In this document: positions 17,368 through 27,947 of the stretch, piece by piece
Position numbering within the stretch: position 1 is the first letter of the stretch
Layout of the letters: each line of letters opens with the position of its first letter
Source: a virus
Direction: 5' to 3' (one strand)
Length of the DNA: 64,000 nucleotides
IMG/VR virus record: IMGVR_UViG_3300025010_000008
Program-made: the position numbers and the translations under genes
The notes under the pieces: model-generated
Databases searched by the model: none
What the model was told of the DNA's origin: nothing
Seen by the model: the letters and a program-made list of their open reading frames with translations, nothing else

Positions 17368-18063
17368 TTGCAAATTCTAACCCCAACACAACTAATTAGG
17401 CAGGCAGCTCTAAAAACTCCCAGTGTGCCGGTAGCAATGGGCAAAACCATAGAGTATGCTGACGTACAGCTGGAAGAAGTAAAGGATCAAAGATGTTGGC
17501 TATGCGGAGGAAAAACGGGAGGTCAGGGACAACCCATCAAAAAAGCTATCAAGCCGACATTCACCGACCGGGACAAGGCCCGCGTACCTCACAGTAATTC
17601 ACTTTGTCCTGGCTGTGCCTTCTGCCTGTCATATTCGCCACTCAGGAACTATAATATTTTGGCGACAATGGACGGCTTGAGACACCCAACAAGGCCGGAA
17701 GTTAAGGAGTTGCTACTTGAACCTCCTGAGCCGCCTTTTGTTCTCTGTATTGCTGTGTCAGGGCAGAAGTGGTTACATTTCCGCTCTAAAGTGGCGTATT
17801 CGCGGGACGGATTCCCGGCACAGTTAGAGGAAACGCTAATATGCGTAGAAAGGCCGTTGCTCCGCGAATGGCTGGAGGTTATCGAAGAACTGTATACCGT
17901 ATTTACGAAAGAGGAAATCAAGACCGGCAGGTACAGCCAGAACAGAATCAAGACGTTCGGCCTGAATGAATTTCAGTCAGTTGACGGGAAAATAGCAGGA
18001 GTGAGAGGGACAAGGCTTTTCGATTTGGCCGTCTTTGTCGCTCAAAAGAAAGGAGAGGAATAA
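17368..18063 (+). CDS. csf1: Csf1-like (type IV Cas8-like large subunit) zinc-finger protein
   Basis: 231 aa, TTG start after RBS ggaggtg. Cys4 motif CWLCGG...CPGCAFC. First gene of the operon, in the csf1 position. Confidence 0.55.
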   Translation: MQILTPTQLIRQAALKTPSVPVAMGKTIEYADVQLEEVKDQRCWLCGGKTGGQGQPIKKAIKPTFTDRDKARVPHSNSLCPGCAFCLSYSPLRNYNILATMDGLRHPTRPEVKELLLEPPEPPFVLCIAVSGQKWLHFRSKVAYSRDGFPAQLEETLICVERPLLREWLEVIEELYTVFTKEEIKTGRYSQNRIKTFGLNEFQSVDGKIAGVRGTRLFDLAVFVAQKKGEE

Positions 18064-18528
18064 ATGTATTACAATTTTGACACAGAGGAAGAAAACGCTG
18101 CCACTGCTGCTCTGCTGGTATATGCCATATACCGAAGCCGCGACGCGAAGCGCTTTAAAGTCAATCCTGAGATGTGGACAAGGATCGAAAACGCTGTCAA
18201 ATCAGCCTCAAAGCGTGCTATGGATTTAGGGGATTTTATCGAAAAACTCAAACCTAAACTGCAATGCGGGACGATTCACCCACGCTGGGCAAAGACTATC
18301 CCGGATGGCATTGTCAGTATGCGGGTTATGCCTGACGGATCAGTTATTGAGGTGGCAGACAGCGGGAAACGCCAATTCCTTACCGACGTTCTGAATGAGG
18401 CGGATCACCGGGCAGTGCTGGATTATCTCTATCGCAAAACTGCCTTAGTTGTGCTATTGGTCAGGGACAGGCTTGAACGCGAAAAGCCTATTGAAATTAA
18501 ATTAGGGGAGGATTTTATTGATGTCTAG
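18064..18528 (+). CDS. Cas11-like small subunit (assigned by position)
   Basis: 154-aa predicted helical protein between the csf1-like and cas7-like genes. There is no gap to its upstream neighbour (TAA 18061-18063, ATG 18064). Confidence 0.4.
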   Translation: MYYNFDTEEENAATAALLVYAIYRSRDAKRFKVNPEMWTRIENAVKSASKRAMDLGDFIEKLKPKLQCGTIHPRWAKTIPDGIVSMRVMPDGSVIEVADSGKRQFLTDVLNEADHRAVLDYLYRKTALVVLLVRDRLEREKPIEIKLGEDFIDV

Positions 18529-19699
18529 TATTAGATTGGATGGAAAAATCACATTATTGTCGCCTTTATCACATATTGGGGAAAGTTCAGGAATTGACAG
18601 TTTCTTGTCAACTGATACTGTTATTGGGGTAGATGGAAAACCTTTGGAAGTATTCACCTACAGCGGGAACGCATTTAGGGGGCAACTTCGCGATCTATGC
18701 GCCGCCTATATGACCGAGAAGCTTGGGAATTTGCAGTACAATCCCGATGTGTTCTATCTCTTGTTCTCAGGCGGTTCCCTTGGTGGCGCTCAGTCAGTTG
18801 ACATAGACCAGGCCCGCATGTATCGCAGAAATATTCCGATGCTCAGCGTGTTTGGCGGCGGCGTAGGTAATCAGATTCTAACCGGCAAAATCAAGGTTGG
18901 TGCTATGTATCCACTCACGGAAGAATGCCAGAGAATTCTTCCTGAACATTTGAGAGACGAAAATGCGCCAAGTTGGCGGCAATGGACTTTCGACAAGAGC
19001 TTTACCCGCATGGACGATGCCAAAAACGAGAACATGCGTAAATACCTAACAGGTACCGAAACAGATGGACTTGCCATAACCGGGCAGGCAGAGGATGACA
19101 AAAAGAAAAAGAAAAAAGAAGATCCTCCACAGCAGATGCGGTATACCGTTGAAATGCTGGCGGCAGGTGCTGTGATGTACCAGCGTATTGATTTATGCGA
19201 TCTGTCCGATTTGGAGCTTGGGGCTTTTGTGTCTGCCTTAGTGGAATTTTCCAAGAAAAGCTACATTGGGGGTAAGAGCGGCACCGGCCACGGGCTCGTA
19301 GACATCGAATACACCTGGAGAAAAGCAGGACAAAAAGAATCTGAAGGGATTTTCCTGAAAATTTCCTCTGACTGCCTTTGGTTATCAGAACCAGCAGAAG
19401 AAGCCAAACAGAGTTATGATCAGTTTTTGGTGACTTTATACGACAGGTATTTGGAAAATAGCGCCGATGAGCTGGCTAAGCTGTTGAGCGGAGAAACTGT
19501 AAAACCAGGTAAACCGGAAGAATCAGACGTTTCAGTCATTAGGAAAACGCTTAGTAAGGCAGTAAAGCATTTATCCGACAATGAGCTCATTTCTTTATGG
19601 GAAAGATGGTCTAGTGAATGTTATAGTGCTGGCTCATTATCTCCTAGTAAAGAATATTGCAACGAGTTTAAAGCTTGGTTGTCGGCAGGTGGAAAATAA
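18521..19699 (+). CDS. csf2: Csf2-like Cas7 RAMP backbone subunit
   Basis: 392 aa. It has the RAMP-like motifs SPLSHIGE, YSGNAFRGQLRD and SVFGGGVGNQILTGK, plus a Lys-rich insertion DDKKKKKKED. Confidence 0.65.
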   Translation: MSSIRLDGKITLLSPLSHIGESSGIDSFLSTDTVIGVDGKPLEVFTYSGNAFRGQLRDLCAAYMTEKLGNLQYNPDVFYLLFSGGSLGGAQSVDIDQARMYRRNIPMLSVFGGGVGNQILTGKIKVGAMYPLTEECQRILPEHLRDENAPSWRQWTFDKSFTRMDDAKNENMRKYLTGTETDGLAITGQAEDDKKKKKKEDPPQQMRYTVEMLAAGAVMYQRIDLCDLSDLELGAFVSALVEFSKKSYIGGKSGTGHGLVDIEYTWRKAGQKESEGIFLKISSDCLWLSEPAEEAKQSYDQFLVTLYDRYLENSADELAKLLSGETVKPGKPEESDVSVIRKTLSKAVKHLSDNELISLWERWSSECYSAGSLSPSKEYCNEFKAWLSAGGK

Positions 19700-20382
19700 T
19701 GCAACCTTTAAAGATTACGGCAAAAATGCAGGATGGAAGGGTAGCGGGAACCGATCCATATTTCCCGCTTGACAGCATTATGGCCGCCGAGTGGATGCGG
19801 AGAAATCATCCGGAAGCGTACTACAATGCCAGCAGTCACTTACTGACCAACGATCTAATTGTACCGGATCTACCGCTTGCCCGATGCGGAGAAGGCGAGG
19901 ACTGGTATTTTGCGTGCAGCTTCAATACAGTGCCTTCTCAAAAAGAATACGTCATGCACTGGCACAAACGTTTTGACGATCACCTTGACCAGCACATTGA
20001 TTTCAAGGGCAAACGTGGCAAGGTTGATATTAAATCCGGCAAAAACAAGGCGTACCGGATGCCGCTTGTCGTGCAACTATTCGATAGGCTAGAATGGTTC
20101 GCTGTTGGCGATCTAGAAGCTGTACGCGAACTGACTGAGGTTGCTACTCATATCGGCAAAAAATCAAGTCAGGGACTTGGAGCAGTAGAATGCTGGACTG
20201 TTGAGCCATGGCCGGATGATTGGAGTCTAGTCAGGGACGGAAAATTGACCAGAGCTATTCCCGTTGAGTCAGGATTTCCTGAAGGTGTCAAAGAGTCTAG
20301 GATTGCGCTATATGGAATCAGATCCCCGTACTGGCACACCTCGAACCAAAGAGTCTGTATGATGCCGGAGGTGGTAGTATGA
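19699..20382 (+). CDS. csf3: Csf3-like Cas5 RAMP subunit
   Basis: The ATG at 19699 overlaps the TAA of cas7 by 1 nt. The N-terminus MQPLKITAKMQDGRVAGTDPYFPLDSIMAAEW resembles the Csf3 pattern. Confidence 0.5.
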   Translation: MQPLKITAKMQDGRVAGTDPYFPLDSIMAAEWMRRNHPEAYYNASSHLLTNDLIVPDLPLARCGEGEDWYFACSFNTVPSQKEYVMHWHKRFDDHLDQHIDFKGKRGKVDIKSGKNKAYRMPLVVQLFDRLEWFAVGDLEAVRELTEVATHIGKKSSQGLGAVECWTVEPWPDDWSLVRDGKLTRAIPVESGFPEGVKESRIALYGIRSPYWHTSNQRVCMMPEVVV

Positions 20383-27453: not shown

Positions 27454-27466
27454 AAAGTCGGTTGCA

Positions 27467-27870
27467 GTACCGAGTTCACCGGGTTGAATAGTGAAACCCA
27501 TAATGATGACAAAGTTACAATACCGAGTCCAGCGGTTTTAATGTTGGAACATCCTATAATGTTCATATGATGGAACTTTGTAGCTATAATAATGCCGAGT
27601 CCAGCGGCTTAAGCTTTAGAACCGGGACTATGGAGATGTTCGACCAAAGCATTGGAACTGTGGGATAGGTCTTATAATGCCGAGTCCAGCGGCCTTAACT
27701 CTGGAACTATACTCATTAACTTGATCTAATGCCGGGTTTGGCGGCTTGAGAATACCAAAACTTGTACATTAAAATCTTCCGTGTATTTTCGCAAATCATT
27801 ATGAGGGCGCATAATTCGCGCCTTTCGCGCTCGATTGCAATGGCTAGTTCACGGCCTTGAATGGTGAAAC
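27467..27870 (+). CRISPR. Atypical CRISPR-like mini-array of divergent hairpin repeats
   Basis: Six ~31-nt units at 27467-97, 27520-50, 27592-622, 27677-707, 27729-61 and 27842-70. They share a CCGAGTYCAxCGG core and end in GGAAC/GAAAC. Intervals are irregular (22, 41, 54, 21 and 80 nt). Confidence 0.45.
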
Positions 27871-27921
27871 AAGCACTTCCAACCGTTGTCCTGAATTGAT
27901 TTTTATACATAACAACAGTCT

Positions 27922-27947
27922 ACCGCCTTTATAGGCGGTTTTTATTA
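27922..27947 (+). terminator. Rho-independent terminator after the repeat array
   Basis: ACCGCCT ttat AGGCGGT followed by TTTTATT. Confidence 0.75.

Follow-up and report, generated by a model that had tools for sequence, protein, structure and literature searches.

The 64,000-nucleotide stretch of viral DNA analysed here (IMG/VR record IMGVR_UViG_3300025010_000008; hereafter the window) belongs to a temperate tailed phage from groundwater metagenomes. Profile scans of its open reading frames (ORFs) revealed a tape measure, an amidase, a serine integrase and a repressor region. The longest contig of this phage is 80 kb, so the phage may reach past the window. Two CRISPR modules are encoded at positions 17368-27947 (Table 1): one complete type V-M system, comprising cas12m and an unusual array, and one array-less type IV-B variant with Cas6. 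A first-pass annotation had described a type IV effector with Cas6, a type V/TnpB-like nuclease and an orphan array, with no adaptation genes. The type IV assignment is borne out by PADLOC matches for Csf1, Cas11, Csf2 and Csf3 and by Pfam matches for Cas6 and CysH; likewise, no Cas1, Cas2 or Cas4 was found among the matches listed for the 61 other ORFs of the window scanned against PADLOC and Pfam.

Table 1. Genes, repeats and regulatory features of the two modules and the region between them
Feature	Position	Strand	Evidence or remark
csf1 (Cas8-like, Zn finger), 231 aa	17368..18063	+	PADLOC Csf1_0_IV 7.9e-37
cas11 small subunit, 154 aa	18064..18528	+	PADLOC Cas11_2_IV 5.5e-47
csf2 (Cas7), 392 aa	18521..19699	+	PADLOC Csf2_0_IV 2.4e-70
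csf3 (Cas5), 227 aa	19699..20382	+	PADLOC Csf3_0_IV 2.1e-49
cas6, 211 aa	20379..21014	+	Pfam PF10040 6.9e-14
cysH-like PP-loop enzyme, 255 aa	21007..21774	+	PF01507 2.2e-25; SFGKDS motif
Membrane protein, candidate SSF-symporter-like	21767..22705	+	ESM Atlas features 0.93 to SSF cluster, 36% of members
Candidate guide 4 target: CTA protospacer adjacent motif (PAM) and 11/12 seed match	22788..22802	+	Post hoc
12/12 sigma-70/sigma-A promoter opening the variable region with cas12m	22810..22838	+	Sole 12/12 site in window
Two genes (287 aa, 141 aa) without assigned function	24351..25696	+	Variable region of the phage family
cas12m (V-M / V-U1), 561 aa	25699..27384	+	PADLOC Cas12u1 5.5e-141; PDB 23vw Cas12m 2.7e-164
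Leader, V-M-type: TTGCGAA motif, TCG end	27385..27460	+	Same motifs in relatives
Repeat R1 (canonical type), 16-nt spacer after	27461..27497	+	
Repeat R2, 35-nt spacer after	27514..27550	+	
Repeat R3, 48-nt spacer after	27586..27622	+	
Repeat R4, 15-nt spacer (guide 4) after	27671..27707	+	
Repeat R5, 39 nt; then 72-nt gap with second leader-like end	27723..27761	+	
Repeat R6 (canonical type), about 50 nt to terminator	27834..27870	+	Top score, relatives-only position weight matrix
Intrinsic terminator, array end	27922..27947	+	

The protein Cas12m carries the RuvC residues D299, E452 and D543, a CxxC/CxxC zinc ribbon and a coiled-coil REC2 domain. Homology to Cas12m/V-U1, a length within about 560-600 aa, adjacent 36-37-nt repeats with a two-stem pseudoknot, and a RuvC triad of one of the described types (DED, HDD, NDD) place it in subtype V-M. 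Accordingly, the earlier assignment to type V holds (Cas12u1, 6e-141), but the protein is not TnpB: an IS200/605 TnpB was rejected, since family NF040570 gave 73 bits against a cut-off of 100, no Rfam hit was obtained there, and CRISPR repeats are present instead. Characterised Cas12m proteins, including those of the D-E-D type, bind double-stranded DNA without cutting it (PMC11013384), and by analogy the protein of the window is probably a DNA binder and not a nuclease. The locus resembles known V-M systems (MmCas12m2, PDB 8hio; GoCas12m, 8pm4; PDB 23vw; PMC11013384, PMC10442227) in protein size, REC2 and zinc ribbon, in pseudoknotted 36-37-nt repeats directly downstream, in the lack of adaptation genes and in its location on a mobile element. 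In a GenBank phage (L260; KX853510, Virus Rctr197k, 11968-15384), a Cas12m homolog missing from the annotation was also noticed, together with an array.

A single repeat locus, as the first-pass annotation had claimed, was recovered by a covariance model search of the whole window, with six matches, all inside 27461-27870. It starts 76 nt behind cas12m on the same strand, with a TATAAT box in the leader (27448-27453), and is of the Cas12m repeat type; the array is thus not an orphan, and only the IV-B module is array-less. The six repeats, 37-39 nt in length, are 57-81% identical in pairs (21-30/37), and the spacers measure 16, 35, 48, 15 and 72 nt, whereas in 46 relative arrays repeats are mostly 0.93-1.0 identical and spacers are mostly 35-38 nt long. 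Judging by its predicted structure, the array is worn yet correctly folded. Spacers 2 and 3 contain an internal copy of the repeat 3' end with a small GTTC...GGAAC hairpin (27551-27576, 27623-27658); an internal copy with a small hairpin is also seen at positions 7873-7895 of locus L016.

The array almost certainly belongs to Cas12m. In relatives of Cas12m with 50-61% identity, the gene is directly followed by the same leader motifs and by 37-nt repeats, in agreement with the adjacency, shared strand and 3' hairpin taken earlier as signs of type V. A position weight matrix built from relatives only gave scores of 36.8 for R6, 34.5 for R1 and 17.2 for R2, versus a shuffle maximum of 13.6. Across 17 repeats, the two crossing stems of the V-M pseudoknot are paired in 95% of cells, with two-sided changes at 8/8 pairs, a result equalled by 0/500 shuffles and reaching at most 49% in slid controls, a comparison somewhat inflated by the derivation of the model from the tested sequences themselves. 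The pseudoknot agrees with the published V-M scaffold (PMC10442227), and in R5 most of stem II is exchanged by compensatory changes with pairing kept. With the repeat model, a repeat was detected behind each of the close Cas12m genes tested, five of which (L098, L099, L220, L221, L223) had played no part in the training, and no V-M-type repeat was detected in 18 loci with IV-B only or in the sister phage. The latter (67 kb; completeness 83%) shares the IV-B-cas6-cysH-transporter operon with the window and has neither Cas12m nor the repeat.

In host-class genomes, a complete 37-nt V-M repeat was found as a spacer of a class 1 host array whose own 30-nt repeats end in ATTGAAAT (L231, 1501-1537; G150:C69), and solitary intergenic V-M repeats with no cas12m nearby were found at L228, L232, L234, L235, L236 and L237. 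Such solitary repeats may represent guides that act in trans, or else ectopic insertions.

The type IV-B operon (17368-22705) is represented by csf1, cas11, csf2, csf3, cas6, a cysH-like gene and a gene of an SSF-like transporter. It starts 51 nt past the endolysin gene and ends with the transporter gene at a terminator (22704-22723). The C-terminus of Csf2 is about 65 aa longer than in its relatives. Genes csf1, csf2, csf3, cas11 and cysH-like, together with the lack of a helicase (DinG/RecD) and of an array of its own, correspond to subtype IV-B. The gene cas6 is not typical of this subtype, described as binding heterogeneous RNA and, save for 'rare exceptions', as lacking Cas6 (PMC8175902, 10.1101/780106); given these exceptions, the operon was regarded as a variant and was not excluded from the subtype. 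Subtype IV-D was rejected, with RecD absent and cysH present. Similar to the Csf complex of Mycobacterium JS623 (PMC8175902, 10.1101/780106), the operon combines csf1-cas11-csf2-csf3 with a cysH-like gene and lies, with no helicase or own array, in a prophage-type element; it differs in having an apparently active Cas6, an SSF-like membrane gene and a fixed position behind lysis genes. In related phages, the module was repeatedly found directly behind the lysis genes, with or without cas6, and is a recurrent late-region cassette of the phage family. The host is presumed to be Peptococcaceae-like, because close relatives of the IV-B operon are located in a metagenome-assembled genome of Peptococcaceae.

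Residue H36 and the C-terminal Gly loop of Cas6 are invariant in the family alignment, and the structure model is closest to Thermus Cas6 (Foldseek 2.5e-10); Cas6 accordingly appears to be intact and active. The family comprises ten proteins, and in the six contexts seen the gene belongs to a phage IV-B operon (6/6). No cognate array or structured-RNA family linked to IV-B was detected near the IV-B loci tested, and a conserved 'non-coding' stretch ahead of csf1 in relatives was rejected as an IV-B RNA, being small protein genes. The likeliest substrate of Cas6 would be an RNA of non-local origin, for instance class 1 CRISPR RNA (crRNA) of the host. The hijacking of host arrays suggested earlier may be conceivable for the IV-B/Cas6 module only.

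The only loci with the SSF-like membrane gene are cas6-bearing IV-B loci that also have the closer CysH type (the window, L001, L109). In L007/L109, the IV-B operon has cas6 as its first gene and a second csf1-like/csf3-like pair ahead of cysH and the transporter, and in L112 (10804-12920) a radical SAM gene lies between cas6 and cysH.

The two modules are found mostly apart. Among 162 host-class genomes, Cas12m was found in four, IV-B in six and both in none; most IV-B loci have no Cas12m, and most Cas12m loci have no IV-B. Within the window, the modules are 3 kb apart and have separate promoters and terminators. IV-B nevertheless lies at most 10 kb from Cas12m in three other unrelated elements (L046/L047, L124, L160), nearly adjacent in L160 in the order csf1-csf2-csf3-cysH-ORF-cas12m-array. 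By count of the Cas12m clusters represented by 15 kb of sequence or more, 2 other clusters of 64 have IV-B near Cas12m. Two loci from one sequencing run of another sample, L101 with Cas12m and L112 with IV-B and cas6, have a common 30-nt unitig end. A cysH-family gene next to Cas12m in L161 was left out of the pairing count, there being no csf genes. Because no matched background stands behind this count, the pairing of IV-B and Cas12m is treated as a recurrent neighbourhood.

Fixed guides, as proposed in the first-pass annotation, are a plausible reading for Cas12m, with one candidate target. It is the match of guide 4 at 22791, within a site that begins 19 nt ahead of the -35 box of the strongest promoter of the phage itself. 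With shuffled guides, a promoter match of this kind has P = 0.008-0.013 in a post-hoc test. That this match is real is doubtful; if it is real, it hints at CreR-like self-repression. Spacers 2 and 3 have no exact match in IMG/VR, spacer matches to the sister phage are at chance level only, and matches of guide 2 in the 162 host-class genomes are no commoner than those of a reversed control. An 18-nt match of guide 6 was rejected for its non-YTN flank and chance level, and two short DNA matches were rejected as not being spacers. Contigs from other groundwater runs have the array without differences; they are short, of low depth and from the same phage, and so give little information on spacer turnover. 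In the Cas12m locus L013, spacer 12218-12252 matches its own neighbourhood (21126-21150) at 24/25 positions beside a CTG PAM, which is consistent with a YTN motif in the Cas12m clade. Full self-matching Cas12m spacers were also noticed in L027 and L084.

Taken together, the locus is likely to hold two separately acquired CRISPR modules, a Cas12m with its own fixed-guide array and an IV-B complex that does not use this array. By analogy with characterised Cas12m, the protein would process its own array transcript and bind, without cutting, double-stranded DNA beside a YTN PAM with guides of about 17 nt; for PmCas12m, the reported PAM is YTN, the guide length 17 nt and the cleavage site behind nt 2-3 of the repeat (10.64898/2026.03.26.714355). 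A 15- or 16-nt spacer with 2-3 nt of the next repeat would then give a guide of about full length. The array, frozen and seemingly selected for structure, would most likely supply fixed guides for transcriptional roadblocking, with the phage's own strongest promoter as the candidate target of guide 4 and other targets in the host or in unsampled rival elements. Cas6 would probably trim an RNA of non-local origin (a class 1 crRNA of the host or some other hairpin RNA) for use by the Csf filament, and CysH may modify the bound nucleic acid. Several points weigh against this reading, which is drawn from sequence. The guide 4 match contains a seed mismatch, and a seed mismatch abolished PmCas12m activity in human cells (10.64898/2026.03.26.714355); chance often yields 11/12 matches (386 relative guides gave 63 against an expected 47), and no convincing self-promoter match was found in relatives, few of the close ones containing both regions. 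Searches of IMG/VR, the sister phage and host-class genomes yielded a full protospacer for none of the spacers. D-E-D clades might still cut, according to a speculation in PMC10442227, and IV-B occurs near Cas12m oftener than sheer chance suggests, as counted without a matched background.

Some of these points would also fit a V-M array in decay, with ownership by Cas12m unchanged: spacers shortened by deletion, targets lost, the guide 4 match due to chance and only R1 and R6 perhaps still working. Ordinary V-M arrays sporadically include spacers as short as 12-20 nt, L016 has a similar ragged tail behind regular spacers, and the protospacer searches were negative. However, the divergent repeats keep both stems by two-sided changes, including stem II of R5, unlike drift, and cas12m is intact, with the leader, -10 box and terminator kept; decay is therefore possible and less probable than fixed guides. 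Cooperation, in which Cas12m would find DNA and IV-B with CysH would act along (through shared guides, recruitment or target modification), draws on the three elements with both modules, on the unitig end common to L101 and L112, and on a published IV-B beside an inactive Cas12b3 with a mini-array (PMC12669027). It is improbable, given that most loci carry one module only, with no overlap in the host-class genomes, and that in the window the modules are transcribed separately; both favour mobile elements, and their co-location can be a cargo hot spot. Least probable of all is the processing of the local array by Cas6 for IV-B, alone or with Cas12m, perhaps at the GTTC...GGAAC hairpins of spacers 2 and 3. 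Cas6 looks intact, the repeats end in GAAAC/GGAAC, as do the hairpins inside these two spacers in GGAAC, and the ends and hairpins of the repeats had been read earlier as signs of Cas6. Yet GAAAC/GGAAC ends are no pointer to Cas6, because other V-M repeats end likewise (L016, L093); the 3' hairpin of the repeats belongs to the V-M pseudoknot as one of its stems, the five other Cas6-bearing IV-B loci (five of five) have no such repeats in the sequence examined, and 37-nt V-M pseudoknots do not resemble the class 1 repeats of a host-class genome, which are 30 nt long and end in ATTGAAAT. A hard-wired Cas12m with minimal guides that both keeps the phage's own early promoter repressed and acts jointly with the Cas6-bearing IV-B/CysH complex is very unlikely as well; if true, it would provide the first defined RNA or protein partner for IV-B.

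Both modules and their pairing have precedents, and the surprise is moderate. A 'Cas-mu' next to Csf2/CysH in phages was reportedly described by Al-Shayeb et al. in 2022 (Cell). The plasmid locus of V-B3 Cas12b3 (PMC12669027 Ext. Data Fig. 7) likewise combines IV-B, a non-cutting Cas12 and a small array on one mobile element with no cas1/2; in the window, Cas12m takes the place of Cas12b3, cas6 forms part of the IV-B operon, and the transcription units are separate. CreR/crlRNA/Cracr mini-arrays (10.1101/2023.03.03.530964; 10.1101/2024.10.29.618823) are similar in their multiplexed units, in degenerate repeats that keep the effector-binding fold and, as a candidate here, in a short partial match with a PAM at a promoter; for CracrVA1, 10 nt of match suffice. 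They differ in belonging to types I and V-A and in lying usually upstream of cas, whereas the array of the window is of type V-M, lies downstream, serves the phage's own effector and has a candidate target. If guide 4 works, gene control of the crlRNA type would be extended to subtype V-M. The array amounts to a naturally occurring series of Cas12m scaffolds that combine two-sided changes in the stems with guides of minimal length. For type IV-B, the compact Cas6-carrying clade offers a handle on the natural RNA of the subtype, the RNA that Cas6 cuts and loads being the candidate.

The variable region with strong sigma-A-type promoters lies between the endolysin and integrase genes. Its gene pair of 287 and 141 aa is present with Cas12m (L098, L101) and without it (L225), and the 287-, 141- and 481-aa genes were rejected as Cas12m-specific, being present also beside IV-B alone. 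The 481-aa product (28067-29512) is a coiled-coil protein with a weak DUF2325 tail and recurs in the phage family (L098, L226). In one run (X2), a contig of depth 11.5 fuses both promoter copies and omits cas12m and the array (23896-27991), which points either to a deletion variant or to a similar promoter of another phage. A hepatitis delta virus-like ribozyme (24196-24266) and a type II hammerhead ribozyme (29755-29814) are intergenic in the variable region, and the equivalent region of the sister phage has a twister-sister ribozyme (L001, 14701-14771). A second, separate gene of the 3'-phosphoadenosine-5'-phosphosulfate (PAPS) reductase family (60370-61080) lies close to DNA methylase genes. 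Ahead of the lysis region, a non-coding stretch of 72 nt (15342-15413) is 87% identical in the sister phage.

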